DNA from: a virus
Lineage: Duplodnaviria > Caudoviricetes
IMG/VR virus record: IMGVR_UViG_3300020045_015699
Location: 1-30,903 of that record
Strand: one strand, 5' to 3'
Length of the DNA: 30,903 nt
The notes under the pieces are model-generated. The model was not told where the DNA came from. It saw only the letters and a program-made list of their open reading frames with translations, and ran no database searches. A program made the position numbers and the translations under genes. Shown here in pieces: positions 1 through 27,049 of the stretch. Every line of letters begins with the position of its first letter. Position 1 is the first letter of the stretch.

Positions 1-12
1 GCTAATCACGGA

Positions 13-139
13 TAACGTATGGTGATTGTAGCTGTTGCCAAAAAAACAAACCGATTAATTAAATTAAAAAACAATAATACAGATGCAAAATAATAATCAA
101 ATTCAAGACCAATCTGGCAATAGCTACAATCACTTGTTA
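13..139. repeat. attC-like imperfect hairpin site 1 (TAAC...GTTA)
   Basis: TAAC at 13-16. Arm gtgattgtagctgttgcca (22-40) is the reverse complement of tggcaatagctacaatcac (115-133) at 18/19, with one G:T pair. GTTA at 136-139. AT-rich loop. Confidence 0.8.
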
Positions 140-958
140 CAAGATGGTTTTATTGTGGCATGGTGGAGTGCAGGAATTACCAGTGCAGTTGCTTGTAAAA
201 TGGCACTGGAAATGTATGAAAACGTGGAGTTGTATTATATTGATATTAATTCTGCTCATTCTGACAATCCAAGATTTAAAGCCGATTGTGAAAAATGGTA
301 CGGAAAAGAAATAAAACCATTAAGTAGCAAAGAATTTAAAAATCAATTTGATGTTATTGAAAAAACTGGAGCTGTGAATACGCCACAAGGCGCACCTTGC
401 ACAAAGTTCTTGAAAAAGGAAGTTAGGTTTGATTTTGAAAAACTACACGAATTATCGCTATTTAATGATTCTACTATTTTAAATCAGGTTTGGGGTTTTG
501 AATATGAAAAGAAAGAAATTAATCGAGCAATAAGACACGGACAACAATACCCAAATACTAAACCATTATTTCCTTTGATTGAAAAAGGATTGGATAAAAA
601 TGAATGTGCAGGATTATTGATAAATGCAGGAATAGAACTTCCTGAAATGTATAAACTTGGGTACAATAATAATAATTGTATCGGTTGTGTAAAAGGCGGT
701 AAAGGGTATTGGAATAAAATCAGAAAAGATTTTCCAGAAACTTTCGAAAGAATGAAACTACTTGAAAGAAAAGTAGGTTACAGTTGTATTAATGGAACTT
801 TTCTAGATGAATTAAATCCAAAGTCTGGAAGAATGTCTAAAGAAATAATGCCGAGTTGTGGAATTGTTTGCGATGTAGATTTTGCAGATATTCCAGATAA
901 AAATTTACAAGAAGTTATTGAGGGGAAGATGTCGATTTATGACGCAATTGCTTCTTAG
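83..958 (+). CDS. PAPS-reductase-like (PP-loop/adenine nucleotide alpha-hydrolase family) phage protein; cargo of cassette 1
   Basis: PP-loop-like WWSAGITSAVA; Cys motifs GAPCTKFLKK, NNNCIGCVKGG and C-terminal CGIVC, as seen in phage PAPS-reductase-family proteins. Confidence 0.75.
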   Translation: MQNNNQIQDQSGNSYNHLLQDGFIVAWWSAGITSAVACKMALEMYENVELYYIDINSAHSDNPRFKADCEKWYGKEIKPLSSKEFKNQFDVIEKTGAVNTPQGAPCTKFLKKEVRFDFEKLHELSLFNDSTILNQVWGFEYEKKEINRAIRHGQQYPNTKPLFPLIEKGLDKNECAGLLINAGIELPEMYKLGYNNNNCIGCVKGGKGYWNKIRKDFPETFERMKLLERKVGYSCINGTFLDELNPKSGRMSKEIMPSCGIVCDVDFADIPDKNLQEVIEGKMSIYDAIAS

Positions 959-974
959 GAGGTAAACTATCTTG

Positions 975-1101
975 TAACGGAAAAGCTACAATTTCGGCGT
1001 GGTCAAACACAAAACCGTATTTCAGTTGTGCCGAATAATTGAAGCACAAAACAATAACCAAATTAAAAACCAATAAAAACGCTGAAATGTAGCTGTTGTT
1101 A
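975..1101. repeat. attC-like imperfect hairpin site 2 (TAAC...GTTA)
   Basis: TAAC at 975-978. agctaca (984-990) pairs with tgtagct (1088-1094); bulged A991; tttcggcgt (992-1000) pairs with acgctgaaa (1079-1087) with one G:T. GTTA at 1098-1101. Same 127-bp span as site 1. Confidence 0.75.
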
Positions 1102-1127
1102 TGGCTCGTTCTTTTAAACATCAAATT

Positions 1128-1481
1128 ATGAATTTACAACTATCGTTAAAAACAAAATGGTTTGAAATGACTAAATCAGGAATTAAAACCGAAGATTATA
1201 GAGAATTGAACGAATACTGGTTTAAAAGACTTGCTTCAAAAGACATTAGAAATCATTGGGATTTAAAAATGTTTATAAAATACGCAAATACATATCCTTA
1301 TAAAATTTACAAGGATTTCGAAACCAATACAATGACTTTAGGTTATCCAAAAAAAGGCGATACCGAACGAATATTAAAACTAGAACACAAAGGAATTGAA
1401 ATAAGAACAGGAAATCCTGACTGGGGTGCTGAACCTGATAAACTTTATTTTGTTATCAAGCACGGCTCGTTGGTAGAATGA
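1128..1481 (+). CDS. ASCH/PUA-like domain protein; cargo of cassette 2 (start at 1128, alternatively 1101)
   Basis: LSLKTKWFEMTKSGIKTEDYRE resembles the ASCH GxKxxExR signature. ATG 1128 follows an A-rich Bacteroidota-type leader. Confidence 0.65.
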   Translation: MNLQLSLKTKWFEMTKSGIKTEDYRELNEYWFKRLASKDIRNHWDLKMFIKYANTYPYKIYKDFETNTMTLGYPKKGDTERILKLEHKGIEIRTGNPDWGAEPDKLYFVIKHGSLVE

Positions 1482-1541
1482 GCCATAACTCCCATATGTA
1501 TTCCACACTCTAAACCACCAACAAACTAAACACTTCACACT
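1475..1541. other. Candidate attI-like primary recombination site next to the recombinase start
   Basis: The cassette-terminal repeat ends in TAAC (1486-1489) but no hairpin follows; 52 bp upstream of the recombinase ATG. Confidence 0.4.
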
Positions 1542-2372
1542 ATGGACATTCGAAAATGGCACGATAAGTATTCGATAGATATTCAGTTAGTTTATAATTC
1601 TGAAGCAACTCGAAAAAACTACAAATCACAAGTTTTAGGATTTCTAAATCATTTCAAAAACGAAATAGAACCAAAAGCAATCGACAACGAAAAAATTAAG
1701 CTTTGGCTATTGCAGGCACAAAGCATTAATTTACGAAAACACAGAATGTGTGCCATCACTTCATTTTACAAAATAACGATTGGAATGCCGAATAAAATAA
1801 GTAAAATTCCATATCCAAAAAGTGAAAAGAAACTGCCAATAGTTTTAAGTCAAGAAGAAGTCCAAAAAATGTTTAGTGTGTGCGAAAATATAAAACACAA
1901 AGTAATCCTGGCATTACTATATTCCTGCGGACTTCGTGTTTCAGAATTAATCAATCTAAAATGGACTAATATCGACAGGTCCCGAATGATAATCAACATC
2001 ATTGGCGGAAAAGGAAACAAAGACCGTCAAGTAATGCTTGATGCTTCATTAATCCCTTTATTGGAAAAGTATTTTTACGAATACCAAACAAAAACCTTTA
2101 TTCTTTCAGGTCAATTCACGGATCAATATTCATCCACAAGTGTAAATCAAGTGATGAAACAATTGGCCGAAAAAGCGGGAATAAATAAAAGAGTTTATAC
2201 ACATCTAATGCGACACAATTGCTTTACACATATGGTCGAAAATGGTACCGATATTAATCTAATCCAAAAATTAGCAGGACACAATAACGTAAAAACAACC
2301 CTGTTATACACTCAAATTTCGCATAATATCATCAGTAAAATACCGTCTCCATTACAATCAATATCACTCTAA
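1542..2372 (+). CDS. Tyrosine recombinase, IntI/XerD-like, without the integron I2 insertion
   Basis: KKLPIVLSQEEV, LLYSCGLRVSE (R), GGKGNKDR (K), HLMRH (HxxR), LAGH, TTLLY (Y) and C-terminal SPL; the catalytic set is complete. Confidence 0.92.
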   Translation: MDIRKWHDKYSIDIQLVYNSEATRKNYKSQVLGFLNHFKNEIEPKAIDNEKIKLWLLQAQSINLRKHRMCAITSFYKITIGMPNKISKIPYPKSEKKLPIVLSQEEVQKMFSVCENIKHKVILALLYSCGLRVSELINLKWTNIDRSRMIINIIGGKGNKDRQVMLDASLIPLLEKYFYEYQTKTFILSGQFTDQYSSTSVNQVMKQLAEKAGINKRVYTHLMRHNCFTHMVENGTDINLIQKLAGHNNVKTTLLYTQISHNIISKIPSPLQSISL

Positions 2373-2377
2373 AACAC

Positions 2378-2623
2378 ATGGCACTAAAATCTAACAACCC
2401 GACAAACGCAATAATAAATCGAAATTTTATCATACGTGTTTTAGAAAATCCAAAAGAAAATCACACCAAAAACACAAAACTAACATCAGCAAATAAGCTT
2501 TCGAACTACTTAAAAGACGAACAACTTAAAATAAAGCTATTTAACAAGATATTAGACGGTGGTAAAGATAAATACACGTTTCTGATAAGAAGTAGGCTTA
2601 AAATTGAAATTCAGTCAAAATAA
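2378..2623 (+). CDS. Hypothetical basic protein
   Basis: 81-aa ORF starting 5 bp after the recombinase stop. Confidence 0.6.
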   Translation: MALKSNNPTNAIINRNFIIRVLENPKENHTKNTKLTSANKLSNYLKDEQLKIKLFNKILDGGKDKYTFLIRSRLKIEIQSK

Positions 2624-2630
2624 CTAAAAA

Positions 2631-2795
2631 ATGAAAAGAAAAGTAAAAATAACAAGTTTGATTGATAAGAATGGATTTGGAATTCATTTGTTTCCGGTGA
2701 TATATTTTGGTCATGAAAATTATGGTTATTCAAGGGTGAATATGTTTTATGTTAGTTGGCTTTTTTGGGAATTAACTATTGAATTTCATTATTAA
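2631..2795 (+). CDS. Small hypothetical protein (54 aa; not in the ORF track)
   Basis: A-rich leader then ATG; MKRKVKITSLIDKNGFGIHLFPVIYFG...EFHY*; fills the gap between neighbouring genes. Confidence 0.5.
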   Translation: MKRKVKITSLIDKNGFGIHLFPVIYFGHENYGYSRVNMFYVSWLFWELTIEFHY

Positions 2796-2826
2796 ACTAA
2801 ATAGGTTTTAATTAAAAATACGAATT

Positions 2827-3108
2827 ATGAGTATAATGATAAAAAGTAAAGGCAAAGAAACGGTATTGATTTCAAGATACTTCTTTTCAAAAAAGTTTCA
2901 AGGATTAGGTGTTTTATTTGATTGCGATGTTGCGCAAGGAATGTTGTATAAAACGATTTTGGTAATAAAGCTTAAGTTTCTTTTTTTTGGATTTTGGATG
3001 AGCGTTGATGTCAAAAATAGAAATCAGCCTGTGAATTTTAGGGTAGATATGTCAAATATAGAAGCTGCGTTGAATAGGGTTAAAAATAGTCTTAATAGAA
3101 GTTTTTAA
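2827..3108 (+). CDS. Hypothetical protein
   Basis: 93-aa ORF in the operon direction. Confidence 0.5.
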   Translation: MSIMIKSKGKETVLISRYFFSKKFQGLGVLFDCDVAQGMLYKTILVIKLKFLFFGFWMSVDVKNRNQPVNFRVDMSNIEAALNRVKNSLNRSF

Positions 3109-3172
3109 ATCACTGTAGATAATCATCTAATCAGGTCGTCAACCTCAATTCCTTATATAACAACAAAAAAGA

Positions 3173-4906
3173 ATGCACCTAACCCCACAACAACTAAATT
3201 CAATCCCTTTCCAATACGCGAATGACGTACGTTCCGGTAAAATCGTTACCGGAAAACGCATCAAGCAGGCCGTGGAGCGTTTTTTTAGTTGGATAGAAAC
3301 CGCCGATGCCGATGGTTATCATTTGGACCACAACAAAGGAATGCAAATCATTAATTTCTTTCCTGCGTTCCTGAATCACACCAAAGGAAAACTAGCAGGA
3401 AAGCCGTTTGTATTGGCACCGTTTCAGCAATTCACGCTGTATAATGTCTTTGGTTGGATGAATAATAGCAACGGATTTCGCCGAATAAATACCGTTTATG
3501 ACAAGCGCGCCAAGAAAAACGGTAAAACAGCCGAAATGGCGGGATTGGCATTATATGCAATGAGTTTCGACCTCGAAATGGAAGGCGAAATCTACGTAGG
3601 AGCCACAAAAGAGGAACAGGCGAAATTATGTTGGGAACAGGCTAGAATGTTTATCGAAAGCCCCGTTGCAAATCCCGCTTTGAAAAAAATGGGGTTTTAT
3701 GCAATGCAAAAGATAATCGGATTCAAAAAAACCAACTCCAAAATGAGGGCTTTAGGTGGAGATTCCAAAACACAGGACGGAATCAACTGCCACGTTGGAA
3801 TTATCGACGAATACCACGCACATAAAGACGATACGGTAAAAGAAAACCTAGAATCGTCCACCGTGCAACGTACACAGGCTTTGATTTATCACATCACAAC
3901 AGCCGGGGCCAATGTGCAGTCTGCTTGTAAGCGATATGAGGAATCGGTAATTGAAGTTTTGGAAGGTCGAAATGTTGATAATTCCCTTTGGATAATGATC
4001 CACGATCTAGACAAAGAAGATTTAGAAACTGAGGAATCGTGGGAAAACAAAGAAATTTGGGTAAAAGCTAATCCTTTATTGGGTCAAGGATTGGCAATCG
4101 ATGCTATTGAAAAGGAATTTGTAAAAGCTAAAAACCAACCGTCCAAAATTCGAAATTTCAAAACCAAAAACTTAAATATGTGGGTGGATCAGCAGTTTGA
4201 TTGGATTCCAAATGAAACTTGGATGAAAAATAAAGTCGATCATATTCCAATGGAAAAGTTTGAAAAATTTGGCTCTTTTGGAGGCTTGGATTTGTCTAAA
4301 ACCATCGATTTAACCGCTTATATTCTAGTTTCCGAACCCGATGAAAAACAAGACAGATACCTTAAATGTTGGTTTTTCTGTCCAAAAGACACCATTATTA
4401 AACGTTCAAAAGAAGATCGTGTGCCATATCAATATTGGGCCGATGAGGGTTATTTGATTGCAACGCCTGGAAACGTTATTGATTACAATGTGATTATGGA
4501 TGTGATTAGGGAAACCTATTACGAACACAAGGTTATCCGACTAGAATTTGACCCGTATAATGCCACTAAAGTAACTCAAGACCTGGAGACCGAAGGTTAC
4601 AACGTTTCTGAGTTTTCACAAGCAATCGGGACGATATCAGCACCAACAAAAGAATTTGAATTACTGGTGTTAGGCGGTAAATTAAAACATGATGGAAACC
4701 CTGTTTTAGCTTGGATGTTGGCATCCTGCCAAATTTATTACGATGCCAACGATAATATGAAAGTCCACAAAGGGCGTTCCGGTGCAAACGGTCGCCGTGT
4801 AGATGGAATCGTGGCAACCATCAACGCAATAGGCGGTTCAATGTCTGCGCCCGAAGAAACAAACGAAAGTATTTACAACCGTGAAGACACGGAGTTTACA
4901 TGTTAA
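3173..4906 (+). CDS. terL: Terminase large subunit
   Basis: Walker A KKNGKT, Walker B IIDEYH, nuclease GLDLS, FDPYNA and C-terminal RVDG; 577 aa. Confidence 0.95.
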   Translation: MHLTPQQLNSIPFQYANDVRSGKIVTGKRIKQAVERFFSWIETADADGYHLDHNKGMQIINFFPAFLNHTKGKLAGKPFVLAPFQQFTLYNVFGWMNNSNGFRRINTVYDKRAKKNGKTAEMAGLALYAMSFDLEMEGEIYVGATKEEQAKLCWEQARMFIESPVANPALKKMGFYAMQKIIGFKKTNSKMRALGGDSKTQDGINCHVGIIDEYHAHKDDTVKENLESSTVQRTQALIYHITTAGANVQSACKRYEESVIEVLEGRNVDNSLWIMIHDLDKEDLETEESWENKEIWVKANPLLGQGLAIDAIEKEFVKAKNQPSKIRNFKTKNLNMWVDQQFDWIPNETWMKNKVDHIPMEKFEKFGSFGGLDLSKTIDLTAYILVSEPDEKQDRYLKCWFFCPKDTIIKRSKEDRVPYQYWADEGYLIATPGNVIDYNVIMDVIRETYYEHKVIRLEFDPYNATKVTQDLETEGYNVSEFSQAIGTISAPTKEFELLVLGGKLKHDGNPVLAWMLASCQIYYDANDNMKVHKGRSGANGRRVDGIVATINAIGGSMSAPEETNESIYNREDTEFTC

Positions 4907-5088
4907 TTATGAAAACAAAACAAACAATCAGACCCCCGCTTTCTGATGCGGTAAAAGCTAAAATAGTAGAGCGTTGGCGGTTTTGTCCGCTAAATTCAAT
5001 ACCACAATTAGCTATAGAGTTTAATTGTGCAGAAAACCAAGTAAACAATGCAGTAAACGAGTATTTATCTACTAAAGTACCTCGCTGA
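4900..5088 (+). CDS. Small protein, possible HTH
   Basis: SIPQLAIEFNCAENQVNNAV fits a helix-turn-helix pattern; overlaps the terL end. Confidence 0.5.
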   Translation: MLIMKTKQTIRPPLSDAVKAKIVERWRFCPLNSIPQLAIEFNCAENQVNNAVNEYLSTKVPR

Positions 5089-5181
5089 AATACTTTTCAT
5101 ATCCTAAAAAAATGATTAAAATTGTATAGATAAAACTTACTAAATATATGGAAATCAAGTAACCATTAAACTATTAATAAC

Positions 5182-5439
5182 ATGTTATCATCAGCCGAAG
5201 AGAATGCCTTACGAATTTACATTGCCAAACTTGAAAAGCAAAACGAAAAAATGCGGGAGCTGTCAAGTAAAAGTGGTTTCTACGCCGAATACTTCAAAGA
5301 ATTAAAAACCGCCAAATCCAATAAACAGGCATTCGATACGGTAAATGAAGAACATCATAAATTGTTTGGGCGGTATCGGTACTCCGATTGGAACTCCTTC
5401 AAACGAATGTCGAATTATTATAATAAAAAAAGTAAATAA
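5182..5439 (+). CDS. Small basic protein with an FGxYRY..xxSFK domain (candidate regulator)
   Basis: 85 aa; paralogous to the N-terminal half of ORF 27394-27843. Confidence 0.7.
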   Translation: MLSSAEENALRIYIAKLEKQNEKMRELSSKSGFYAEYFKELKTAKSNKQAFDTVNEEHHKLFGRYRYSDWNSFKRMSNYYNKKSK

Positions 5440-5441
5440 AA

Positions 5442-5621
5442 ATGAAAATAGTATTCCTTATAATTTGTGTGTTTTTAACAGCAATCGCAACAAGTGTTTT
5501 GTTGGACTGGTATTTTATAGAGCACAATCCGGTTAGATATGTTTTGGTTGTAATGTTGATTATTATCGAATTAATAATCGGTTTCTATTATATAAAATCC
5601 GAAATCAAAAACTTAAAATAA
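5442..5621 (+). CDS. Small two-TM membrane protein (59 aa; not in the ORF track)
   Basis: MKIVFLIICVFLTAIATSVLL...YVLVVMLIIIELIIGFYY; starts 2 bp after the previous stop. Confidence 0.6.
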   Translation: MKIVFLIICVFLTAIATSVLLDWYFIEHNPVRYVLVVMLIIIELIIGFYYIKSEIKNLK

Positions 5622-5622
5622 A

Positions 5623-5775
5623 ATGCAAGAAACCTTAAAAGCCGATAATCTACAAAAAGCAATCCGATTATTGCCACCGCCCAAAACCTACATTCCAAAC
5701 GTAATAACCGTTTTAGTTGGAAAAATAAAATTTACCTTCGAAAAAATAGAGAAAGAATGGTATTTTAAATTTTAG
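5623..5775 (+). CDS. Small hypothetical protein (50 aa; not in the ORF track)
   Basis: MQETLKADNLQKAIRLLPPPK...WYFKF*; starts 1 bp after the previous stop. Confidence 0.55.
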   Translation: MQETLKADNLQKAIRLLPPPKTYIPNVITVLVGKIKFTFEKIEKEWYFKF

Positions 5776-5798
5776 TATTAATTTTATAAAAAAAAAAG

Positions 5799-5981
5799 AT
5801 GCCTGATAAAAAAGAAGATTTATTAGAAAATGTTAGTGCTAGAGTTTTCTTAGATGCACTATCGAAAAAAATAAAAAAATACGAAAAAGAACATTCTGAA
5901 ATGGGTATAATTACTTGTGACGTAAATGATGTTTGGAATTGGATTGAGAAAGCTGAAAAAAAAGTAATCAGTAAAAAATAA
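5799..5981 (+). CDS. Hypothetical protein
   Basis: 60-aa ORF with an A-rich leader. Confidence 0.55.
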   Translation: MPDKKEDLLENVSARVFLDALSKKIKKYEKEHSEMGIITCDVNDVWNWIEKAEKKVISKK

Positions 5982-5987
5982 AAAACA

Positions 5988-6200
5988 ATGAAAAAGCCGA
6001 TTTTCGATTTCATAGATAGACAAATAATTGTAGGTTTTTATAAAAATCCTCCCAAAGATAAGTTTTGGAGTACCCCGCTTGTTGTTTCTCGATATGAAAT
6101 AACAAAATCTAAAAAAGAATTACACAAACAGTTCGAAAAGCCTTTTCTTAAGATAAATGATTTTATTGCTAGTATTTTTACTTCTTTAAAAAATAAATAA
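5988..6200 (+). CDS. Hypothetical protein
   Basis: 70-aa ORF with an A-rich leader, followed by a terminator. Confidence 0.55.
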   Translation: MKKPIFDFIDRQIIVGFYKNPPKDKFWSTPLVVSRYEITKSKKELHKQFEKPFLKINDFIASIFTSLKNK

Positions 6201-6221
6201 AAAAAAGAAAAAAACATTAAG

Positions 6222-6252
6222 AATCCCTTTCCGGCCCCGAGAGGGATTTTCT
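6222..6252 (+). terminator. Intrinsic terminator
   Basis: Stem aatccctttc / gagagggatt followed by a T-rich tract. Confidence 0.65.
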
Positions 6253-6259
6253 GTTTATA

Positions 6260-6309
6260 AGAAAGTTACATAATGTAACCATTTTCGAAATACCCTTAAA
6301 ATACTTTTA
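6260..6309 (+). promoter_or_regulatory. Candidate late promoter, copy 1 (palindrome GTTACAT-A-ATGTAAC)
   Basis: 47/50 identical to 13077-13126; directly upstream of the portal gene; ends in TACTTTTA, resembling the Bacteroidota -7 element TAnnTTTG. Confidence 0.7.
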
Positions 6310-6341
6310 CACTCAAATCAATAACCAAAGAGTTGTAAAAG

Positions 6342-7586
6342 ATGAGTTTAAACGGTGCTTTTAGCGATATGTTCACTACACAAAAAAGAAGTGCTTCTTC
6401 TAATAGTTCCTATTATGGAAGTTTTGGAAGCGGTATTTTTTCGTTTGGTAGTGGAGTAGGTTCAAGTATGAACTACAAAAAATCGCTTACACTAACCGCT
6501 GTTTATAATGCAGTAGAACAAATCTCAAATGATATTGCAAAAATCCCTTTTTCTGTCAATCAGAAAGTAGGAAATAATAGAGAATCACGCCCAAATCATC
6601 CAGCGCAAAGGCTTATAGCATTTTCGCCAAACTCCTTAATGACTACGTTTATTTTCCGTAAAACAATGGCAATATCATTGCTTTTACGTGGAAATGCTTT
6701 GGCGTTAATAATTTTTGATGCTACAGGAAACCCAATCGAAACCATCTTTATCAATTGGGATAGAGTAACGAATATTCGCCTTAAAAATGGCGAATTGGTT
6801 TATGATGTCCAGGGCTTTGAAAATCCTCTTTTAGCTTCTGAAGTAATTCATTGGAAGCATTTTACACATGATGGAATTGTTGGTATTGGCCCAATAACGT
6901 ATGGAGCGCAACAATTAGGATTGGCAATCGAAGTACAGTCTTTTTCAGCAACCAATTTTGCTAATAAGGGCGTTCGTCAAGGAGTTGTTGAAAGTGAAAA
7001 AGCGTTAAATCCAACTGCAAAAACAAGTATTATTAGTGGTTTTAAAACGGCGATGGCTGAAAAATCACCTGATAGAGTAACTGTTTTGGATGAAGGTATG
7101 ACTTGGAAAGCAATTACCATCACGCCGCAAGAATTACAGATTATTGAAACGGCAAAATTCTCAGTAGAAGAAATTGCTCGAATATTCAACATTGCTCCAC
7201 ACAAAATTAAATCGTTGTCACAATCTACCGATAACAATATTGAGCAACAATCACTAGATCACGTTTCAGATACTATTCAACCATACATCACGAATATCGA
7301 ACAGGAATATGCTAAAAAGCTATTTACTGCCAAAGAAGGTGTAGCTGGTTTTTATGTTCGTGGAAATATGAATGTGTTGCTTCGTGCCGATATTAAGTCG
7401 CGTGCACAATGGATTACAGCAATGGTGTATTGTGGTGTAATGACAAGAAATGAAGGTCGCCAATATGAAGATATGAATGATGGCCCTGATTTCTTAAACG
7501 AACATTTGACACCTACAAATCAATTTATTGAAGAACAAATTCAACAAAATCTAAAAGAAAATAACAATGGAACTTCAACTAAATAA
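6342..7586 (+). CDS. Portal protein, HK97 family
   Basis: AVYNAVEQISNDIAKIP, LLLRGNA, EEIARIFNIAPHKI, NIEQQ and MTRNEGR motifs; first gene of the head operon. Confidence 0.93.
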   Translation: MSLNGAFSDMFTTQKRSASSNSSYYGSFGSGIFSFGSGVGSSMNYKKSLTLTAVYNAVEQISNDIAKIPFSVNQKVGNNRESRPNHPAQRLIAFSPNSLMTTFIFRKTMAISLLLRGNALALIIFDATGNPIETIFINWDRVTNIRLKNGELVYDVQGFENPLLASEVIHWKHFTHDGIVGIGPITYGAQQLGLAIEVQSFSATNFANKGVRQGVVESEKALNPTAKTSIISGFKTAMAEKSPDRVTVLDEGMTWKAITITPQELQIIETAKFSVEEIARIFNIAPHKIKSLSQSTDNNIEQQSLDHVSDTIQPYITNIEQEYAKKLFTAKEGVAGFYVRGNMNVLLRADIKSRAQWITAMVYCGVMTRNEGRQYEDMNDGPDFLNEHLTPTNQFIEEQIQQNLKENNNGTSTK

Positions 7587-13076: not shown

Positions 13077-13126
13077 AGAAAGTTACATAATGTAACCACT
13101 TTCGAAATACCCTAAAACTACTTTTA
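13077..13126 (+). promoter_or_regulatory. Candidate late promoter, copy 2
   Basis: 47/50 identical to 6260-6309; ends 22 bp upstream of the tape measure ATG. Confidence 0.7.
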
Positions 13127-26587: not shown

Positions 26588-27013
26588 TTATTCTTTCTTT
26601 TTTGATAAAGTTTTTAAAATTTCATCATCATCAAATTTATTTGCATTTGCATCAGTTAATAGTTCAATTTGTTCTTTAAGTAGTTCTATTATTTTAGAAT
26701 GAAATTCTATTTTATCAAACTTTTTTTTCTCTTTAGATAATTCTATTATTTTTTTATGTTCTTTAATTAAGGCAAGTGTTTGTTTTACTTTTAGTTCAAT
26801 GCCGTTTATTTCATATTCTTCTAAAGGTTCGTTAAGTGTATTATTGCTATCTATTTTAAAAATTGCATGTAATAATGCTAGTTTTGTTTCGGGAATTACT
26901 TCTCCGTTTTCGTAATTTGAGACTGTTTTTAATGATACTCCTAGTTTTATAGCTAATTCCGCTTGGGTTAGCTTAAGTTTTTTCCTATTTTGTTTTATTT
27001 CTAATGCGTTCAT
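26588..27013 (-). CDS. XRE-family HTH repressor (CI-like, no peptidase domain)
   Basis: IKQNRKKLKLTQAELAIKLGVSLKTVSNYENG; divergent from the early operon; ATG at 27013. Confidence 0.88.
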   Translation of the reverse strand: MNALEIKQNRKKLKLTQAELAIKLGVSLKTVSNYENGEVIPETKLALLHAIFKIDSNNTLNEPLEEYEINGIELKVKQTLALIKEHKKIIELSKEKKKFDKIEFHSKIIELLKEQIELLTDANANKFDDDEILKTLSKKKE

Positions 27014-27049
27014 ATTCAATTGGTTATGTATTGTTAGTAAATTTAATTT

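Follow-up and report, generated by a model that had tools for sequence, protein, structure and literature searches.

Fixed G-T wobble pairs probably mark the folded strand of a mobile-cassette row beside an Xer-sized recombinase gene

The DNA studied here, called the window below, is the whole of a 30,903-nucleotide (nt) viral stretch (positions 1 to 30,903 of IMG/VR record IMGVR_UViG_3300020045_015699; Duplodnaviria; Caudoviricetes). Near its start two imperfect hairpins, each heading a gene, stand in front of a tyrosine recombinase gene, and the mismatches in their stems read as G:T on the + strand. Is the + strand folded and recombined as single-stranded DNA, as in the attC sites of integrons, or do the hairpins act in the transcript? 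A preliminary description, made from the sequence alone, favored the + strand as the folded substrate. We conclude that the stretch is probably the end of a row of mobile cassettes in which fixed G-T pairs mark the + strand as the one folded and cut by the neighboring Xer-sized recombinase. This mechanism rests on the cassette unit, the TAAC junctions, the wobble positions, the strand polarity, an attI-like site, and the anatomy of the enzyme.

Cassettes and their sites

The sites bound two mobile cassettes, each consisting of a hairpin and the gene downstream of it (Table 1). The record start (position 1) truncates the array. Both cassettes occur elsewhere, each in one contig. A run X3 contig matches positions 11-979 with 39 other letters and 1 gap, and its flanks differ on both sides. 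A run X5 contig matches positions 975-1489 with 17 other letters and 2 gaps; the end of another cassette precedes the match, and the start of a different hairpin follows where the window has its attI-like site.

We gathered 165 loci around relatives of the recombinase, then 80 more, and 129 around the two cargo genes. The 262 context-distinct cassettes include 13 pairs that are at least 88% alike in the gene. The upstream hairpin is kept in 12 of these pairs, the following 40 nt in one, and the preceding 40 nt in none, and the junctions fall at (T)AAC(G).

Pairing between a cassette's own two ends is far better than between the flanks of a linear site. Terminal positions 11 and 12, which lie outside the selection used to define the set of 192 sites described below, form Watson-Crick pairs in 177 and 138 of the 192, against 53.5 and 62.5 with shuffled partners. 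In the cassette 2 homologues L248, L250, L251, L254, and L264 the two ends have changed in concert. The evidence for a circular form, which is indirect, is that variable terminal positions stay complementary. The terminal wobble, which had been taken as a sign of the circle, does not count toward it: this pairs a fixed T with a fixed G, and so it forms in the linear array too (T6:G146 and T968:G1108).

Strand bias of the wobble pairs

The four G:T pairs previously listed, G34:T121 and G996:T1083 in the site stems and G146:T968 and G1108:T1479 in the cassette termini, are all present, and each is the sole non-Watson-Crick pair of its stem (stems as in Table 1, with that of site 2 checked as 984-990/1088-1094 plus 992-1000/1079-1087). 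A further wobble, overlooked earlier, adjoins the AAC/GTT core (G17:T135 in site 1, G979:T1097 in site 2). The spacers were correctly given as 5 versus 2 nt and 5 versus 3 nt, with 3 extra nt on the 5′ arm of both sites; the bulged base read as A991 may equally be A990. Within the window, finding four G:T pairs out of four has p=0.052 against C:A and p=0.0004 against all mismatch types, which is weak evidence of a bias. The observation has its strength because relatives show it.

We use "phage clade" for enzymes at least 48% identical to the window enzyme, including those in assemblies filed under bacteria, and "chromosomal" for those below 48%. Sites were found with a strand-neutral detector that counts Watson-Crick pairs alone between the AAC arm and the GTT arm, and with it phage-clade enzymes are seen to have arrays upstream of their genes. 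After removal of near-duplicates (256 to 194), the 194 distinct array sites from 64 loci contain 245 G:T and 74 A:C pairs, where base composition predicts a ratio of 1.02. G:T is favored in 132 sites and A:C in 10, with 52 ties. The control is flat, with 57 G:T and 51 A:C in 98 distinct non-array hits, so mismatches in homologous sites do show a strand bias. At least 6 of 10 terminal pairs form in 121 of 160 distinct cassette cores, and among those there are 117 G:T and 6 A:C; one fixed position holds 98 of the 117.

The same places recur from site to site. Numbering from the C of AAC and the G of GTT, each taken as 0, the left arms of 161 sites carry T(-10) in 88% and G(+1) in 96%, and the right arms T(-15) in 90%, A(-7) in 89%, T(-1) in 94%, and G(+10) in 75%. 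T(-15) has G as its partner in 115 of 155 sites. The AAC arm has a net 2-5 extra nt in 151 of 155, and the 3′ arm has no fixed bulge. In a stricter set (n=192; the criteria were pairing and G(+1)/T(-1), and bulged termini were excluded) the outer arm has its G:T at the fixed place in 185 of 192 cassettes, and the inner stem has one in 154 of 191. The G:T pairs are thus fixed positions, not scattered mismatches. Both window sites and the last junction have all the hallmark letters of the family. Recognition by structure rather than sequence, as formerly proposed, does not hold in that form, as T(-10), G(+10), T(-15), A(-7), G(+1), and T(-1) are conserved letters. Apart from these the hairpins share little sequence with each other (30 of 47 letters at best), and the arms stay complementary while letters at variable positions differ. 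In our reading the fold consists of two half-sites whose 5′ strands are T-n7-AAC and T-n7-A-N-C, and a T.G wobble ends each of them.

Folding both strands, as the preliminary description had suggested, gives a lower energy for the + strand in 163 of the 192 linear sites of the stricter set (mean -2.3 kcal/mol) and in 190 of 192 circle-form sites (mean -4.3 kcal/mol). In the window, site 1 on the + strand folds better than 200 of 200 shuffles (z -4.9); on the - strand 1 of 200 shuffles is as good.

Some variants of the site were also seen. Eight homologues of cassette 2 (L248, L250, L251, L257, L260, L261, L263, and L264) have an extra T just after GTT. This T, absent from the window copy, lies in the 3′ strand of the outer arm and moves the wobble G to +11. 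Phage arrays also contain a short, GC-rich, gene-less unit with a symmetric hairpin (offset 0; L015 5217-5317, L019 3577-3644), and an end related to it abuts the attI-like site in L020.

Wobble polarity and gene direction

The preliminary description held that an RNA-level structure could not be excluded, the + strand being also the transcribed one. Hairpins working as RNA, with G.U in the transcript and a role such as processing or translational control of each gene, would fit the phage arrays. There genes lie on the + strand in 154 of 160 cassettes, and the wobble is sense in 93 of 112, antisense in 1, and neither in 18, so that the wobble strand is the coding strand in 93 of the 94 informative cassettes. 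The first in-frame ATG (predicted starts) lies inside the hairpin in 93 of the 231 cassettes with an open reading frame (ORF), including the window (83-135), so the right arm encodes the N-terminus of the protein. The chromosomal Bacteroidota relatives argue against an RNA origin, having the same site logo with genes that face the opposite way. In 47 of their cassettes from 15 loci the outer wobble is on the long-arm strand in 42 and on the other strand in none; of the 38 whose ORF is clear, 33 have it antisense, 1 has it sense, and 4 have it in neither relation. Because the wobble strand follows site polarity and is antisense to the gene in 33 of 34 informative chromosomal cassettes, RNA is now very unlikely as the cause of the bias. 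In addition, the best pairing partner of the outer arm is a whole gene away, and Rfam gives nothing near threshold in window 1-6500 and only tRNA at gathering score in seven arrays. We regard RNA function as highly improbable, the least probable of the readings considered here; a secondary RNA effect may exist in phages. The Flavo-1 RNA family, considered as a lead, had no Rfam match at gathering score in window 1-6500 or in the seven arrays.

Insertion site and recombinase

Between the last cassette and the recombinase gene, which starts 53 nt past the last AAC, is a predicted attI-like insertion site that does not fold. In 81 of 96 loci the pattern AAC-n3-7-TAT[AG]TA lies no more than 130 nt from the start of the recombinase (spacer 5 in 58), whereas 50 of 5931 control windows contain it. 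Across 72 distinct attI-like sites T(-10) is kept in 99% and the fold is -1.0 kcal/mol. The DNA 5′ of the AAC is variable. The consensus, ...TAAC-n3-TATATGTA (window 1487-1500), presumably resembles the XerD arm of dif sites. An A/C-rich tract between this site and the recombinase start (1515-1541) is also conserved, with AA at +24/+25 and +34 to +36 from AAC; it is a candidate promoter or accessory site.

The recombinase has an intact catalytic set (Table 1) and falls under the cut-offs of the profiles tried: IntI (TIGR02249, 149.5 bits versus 265), XerC (160.4 versus 335), XerD (160.1 versus 330), and XerA (182.5 versus 220). It has no IntI insertion, as 21 residues (query 176-197) face 64 of VchIntIA (179-243). 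The distance from the catalytic Lys motif to HxxRH is 65 in the window enzyme and 65-66 in all 18 listed family members, whereas five Xer rows give 70-73 and the two IntI for which the motif search succeeded give 107-108. In a quick tree a branch with SH-aLRT 95 sets 34 family members apart from 4 IntI and 9 Xer, and the family is separate from Bacteroidota XerC/D; four array-bearing genomes that were checked have their own XerC/D. The nearest cellular records are Flavobacterium, Pedobacter, and Flavobacteriaceae assemblies (73-77%). Six chromosomal members (L128, L138, L144, L145, L149, and L152) have longer frames of 372-601 amino acids (aa) with arrays downstream of the gene, and three (L134, L137, and L155) have the divergent layout of classical integrons.

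Comparison with integrons, CALINs, and Xer systems

Our comparison draws on PMC9892861, PMC5027507, PMC5371416, PMC8138268, PMC8618304, PMC7790495, PMC2727003, and PMC4889954. The system shares with integrons (IntI/attI/attC, for example class 1 IntI1 or VchIntIA with VCR, PDB 2a3v) a tyrosine recombinase that adjoins a non-folding insertion site, tandem single-gene cassettes, and cassette duplication and reordering. The sites resemble attC in their AAC/GTT core, unpaired central spacer, imperfect hairpin, and variable loop, and a G follows AAC in both (PMC2727003). In attC the recombined strand is known to carry an excess of G:T (1.24 versus 0.39 per site; PMC5027507), so the folded-strand logic of the preliminary description is established for integrons; the present sites share this excess if the strand with the crossover AAC is taken as the recombined one.

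They are nevertheless not classical attC sites, to which they had been likened. The wobbles are fixed in the present family, the outer arm is about 15 bp long, and the RYYY/RRRY flanks of the attC consensus are not kept. Extra bases lie on the AAC (5′) arm here, whereas attC has its extrahelical bases on the opposite arm; control attC from class 1, Vibrio, and Shewanella integrons have offsets of mostly 0-1 (range -4 to 2) and bulges on the 3′ arm. Unlike IntI, the window recombinase is without the I2 insertion, although in an integron-like subgroup the insertion is reported as not fully conserved (PMC8138268). The layout differs as well: in phages the hairpin heads the gene, genes read toward the insertion site and recombinase, and the folded strand is the coding one. 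The chromosomal relatives share the antisense folded strand of integrons.

Clusters of attC sites lacking integron integrases (CALINs) have been described in phages, and one of these, Polaribacter phage P12002L (PMC9892861), carries sites of the present family. We found six with offset 3 on its - strand, plus two short ones read by eye, heading methyltransferase and small genes. In all, P12002L (our locus L166, 30000-39000, - strand) has at least eight family sites in two clusters around methyltransferase genes, more than the two tested in that paper, which describes them as ordinary attC in a cluster without integrase. P12002L attC1, a family member, is the one among six sites tested there that gave no verified IntI1 recombination, a weak negative in that the cloned piece is without much of its outer arm, the larger part being absent. 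By our reading, the clone of attC2 seems to contain just a site's right arm. Unlike a CALIN, the window has a recombinase gene adjoining its array, and thus a candidate enzyme and insertion site.

With Xer systems the family shares enzyme size, fold, and 11-bp half-sites. Xer acting on folded single strands (CTXphi, IMEX) is a precedent for single-strand exchange without I2 (PMC7790495); those elements use one dif mimic, unlike the present array with its own enzyme. The system is integron-like in its working, and not an integron by enzyme, site geometry, or (in phages) layout. We found no description of it in the open literature; closed journals and preprint supplements may hold one.

Proposed mechanism and alternatives

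The folded + strand would present two 11-bp half-sites in head-to-head order: in one, T-n7-AAC pairs with GTT-n7-G, in the other T-n7-A-N-C pairs with G-n9-G, and a T.G wobble closes each. The spacer that they flank would be uneven, its 5′ arm having 2-5 extra bases. On the - strand the wobble places would hold C.A, and the fold would be poorer. In tyrosine recombinase chemistry a crossover at the 5′ edge of the spacer or overlap means that this strand is the one cut. Because the crossover here is at the 5′ spacer edge, we infer that the + strand is cut, with one subunit predicted to cut at AA|C. The strand bias and the 5′ AAC crossover together keep the + strand as the likely folded DNA substrate of an integron-like system. 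Exchange between successive hairpins would excise the cassette as a single-stranded circle, in which its own termini close the outer arm, and exchange of the circle with the duplex attI-like site would insert it beside the recombinase gene. The unmatched spacer would stop exchange of the second strand, and thus replication would resolve the junction and a copy would be left behind. Three identical cassettes stand in different order in L028 and L030, and a 329-nt cassette is present three times, with differing neighbors, in the seven-site array of L052 (2372-4094); both fit what such copy-out resolution predicts. The array strand shows positive GC skew in 70 of 85 loci, and the skew is positive across the window as well. 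A folding strand on the lagging-strand template raises excision in integrons (PMC5371416), and if GC skew marks the direction of replication, the folded strand here would, speculatively, be the lagging-strand template.

Several observations weigh against this mechanism. No circle joints were seen in contigs of four runs. The lack of the I2 helix weakens it, because the reading of attC and the prevention of a second exchange have been ascribed to this helix (PMC7790495). The 13 close cassette pairs lack independence, as they derive from about 10 cassettes. Of 9 pairs with 70-80% gene identity, one alone keeps the upstream hairpin, and L038 and L372 share an identical gene with a different 5′ arm that starts just inside AAC, so hairpins may be exchanged too. 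At the cut-off used, 39 of 160 cores are without complementary termini, some of which may be explained by missed sites. The stricter set was pre-selected on pairing and G(+1)/T(-1), and 29 of its 192 linear sites fold no better on the + strand. Site 2 of the window on the + strand is no better than its shuffles (z -1.0; 29 of 200 as good). Repeatedly, a C:A is present on the + strand at -6 (36 of 161 sites) or at -7 (11), and in a larger set 72 of 250 sites have a recurrent stem C:A, mostly where the 5′ excess is 4-5. The subsidiary hairpin in the site 2 loop does have the two G:T pairs previously noted, and such a hairpin arises in only 6 of 2000 shuffles, yet it is no family trait: it has counterparts in 5 of 183 family loops on the + strand and 15 on the -, and is altered at 1024 and 1025 in the near-identical run X5 copy of cassette 2.

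Three alternatives use DNA in other ways. The recombinase may act on double-stranded sites and tolerate unmatched overlaps, as integrases of conjugative transposons do, with T(-10), G(+10), and T(-15) giving direction and G:T as a by-product. We consider this improbable, as it leaves unexplained the complementarity of arms at variable positions in hairpins so dissimilar, as well as that of termini 300-1500 nt apart. If the + strand does fold, it might still follow a route unlike that of integrons, with both arms sometimes exchanged or the inner half-site cut, so that hairpins and genes reassort separately. The missing I2 helix, the loss of hairpins at 70-80% gene identity, the L038/L372 difference, and the unrelated hairpins of cassette 2 homologues all suit such a route. 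It is quite improbable in our judgment, given that TAAC is the sole breakpoint in 12 of the 13 close pairs and in both window cassettes, and that spacers vary among sites, which disfavors a second exchange. Lastly, another enzyme, a true IntI or the host Xer, could move the cassettes in trans, the adjacent recombinase being a bystander. The cluster without integrase described in P12002L (PMC9892861) would agree with this, and earlier surveys judged I2-less recombinases near attC not to be IntI (PMC4889954). The prospect is a distant one: the attI-like site stands beside the gene in most loci, the same enzyme family adjoins arrays in phages and chromosomes, none of five chromosomal genomes with arrays (completeness not given) has an IntI over the cut-off, and P12002L_attC1, the sole intact family site tested with IntI1, is the one noted above as giving no verified recombination. 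Cutting of the folded + strand by the adjacent recombinase therefore remains our preferred reading.

Genome context

The window is a tailed phage of Bacteroidota and probably a temperate one. The PF01507 match of the first cargo gene (E 3e-4) is under the family cut-off. The second has an atlas match (0.93, rank 18) to an ASCH cluster, with recognition below threshold, and ASCH-like identity is only a lead. Both cargo genes are also found as ordinary phage genes without hairpin or termini, the first in L167 and L172 and the second in L249, L253, L256, L258, L259, L262, L265, L266, and L268, so cassettes seem to be made from, or to decay into, ordinary genes. Farther along the genome, a 50-nt direct repeat (94% alike; 6260-6309 and 13077-13126) lies just 5′ of the portal gene (6342) and of an 819-aa gene (13149) and is possibly a late promoter.

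Table 1. Features of the window
Feature	Position	Strand	Details
3′ end of preceding cassette	1..16	+	T6 ... AAC 14-16; T at -10 and TAAC as in all family junctions
Hairpin site 1	14..138	+	AAC (14-16), spacer, 19-bp stem 22-40/115-133, A-rich loop, GTT (136-138)
Cassette 1	16..977	+	site 1 hairpin and downstream gene; own termini 136-150/964-978 pair
PAPS-reductase-like ORF, 291 aa	83..958	+	phrog_424, E 2.8e-43
Hairpin site 2	976..1100	+	AAC (976-978), spacer, stem 984-1000/1079-1094 with one bulged A, loop, GTT (1098-1100)
Cassette 2	978..1488	+	site 2 hairpin and downstream gene; own termini 1098-1112/1475-1489 pair
Subsidiary hairpin in site 2 loop	1021..1043	+	two G:T pairs; probably incidental
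ORF, 117 aa (126 aa if from ATG 1101)	1128..1481	+	no assigned function; phrog_625, E 1e-24
attI-like site	1479..1500	+	T-n7-AAC, 5 nt, TATGTA; non-folding; predicted insertion site
Tyrosine recombinase, 276 aa	1542..2372	+	PF00589; intact R132-K157-H221-R224-H247-Y256
Tailed-phage genes	3173..25621	+	terminase, portal, protease, capsid, lysis, separate 402-aa phage integrase
Repressor-like helix-turn-helix protein	26588-27019		

Implications

The I2 helix has been held to be the innovation that enabled the use of folded single strands, with the lack of intermediates named as a limit (PMC7790495). The balance is about even on whether the family is a second, independent solution to single-stranded DNA recombination, in which an Xer-sized enzyme of Bacteroidota chromosomes and phages reads two symmetric T.G wobbles and an uneven spacer instead of flipped-out bases, without I2. 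In that case phages would have turned the cassette round, so that the hairpin heads the gene, gives it a translation start, and lies on the strand exposed in transcription and replication. If true, the family would stand as a present-day model of the intermediate that is missing between Xer and IntI. With an I2-less enzyme, hairpin sites, wobbles, and an insertion site together, the I2 question becomes directly testable with a few oligonucleotides and one 276-aa protein. The system would also offer a compact recombinase with loose sequence needs. It would explain the shuffling of accessory genes in Bacteroidota phages and would show that a widespread system, for which we estimate about 1,400 stretches in one metagenome collection, escapes integron finders built around IntI.
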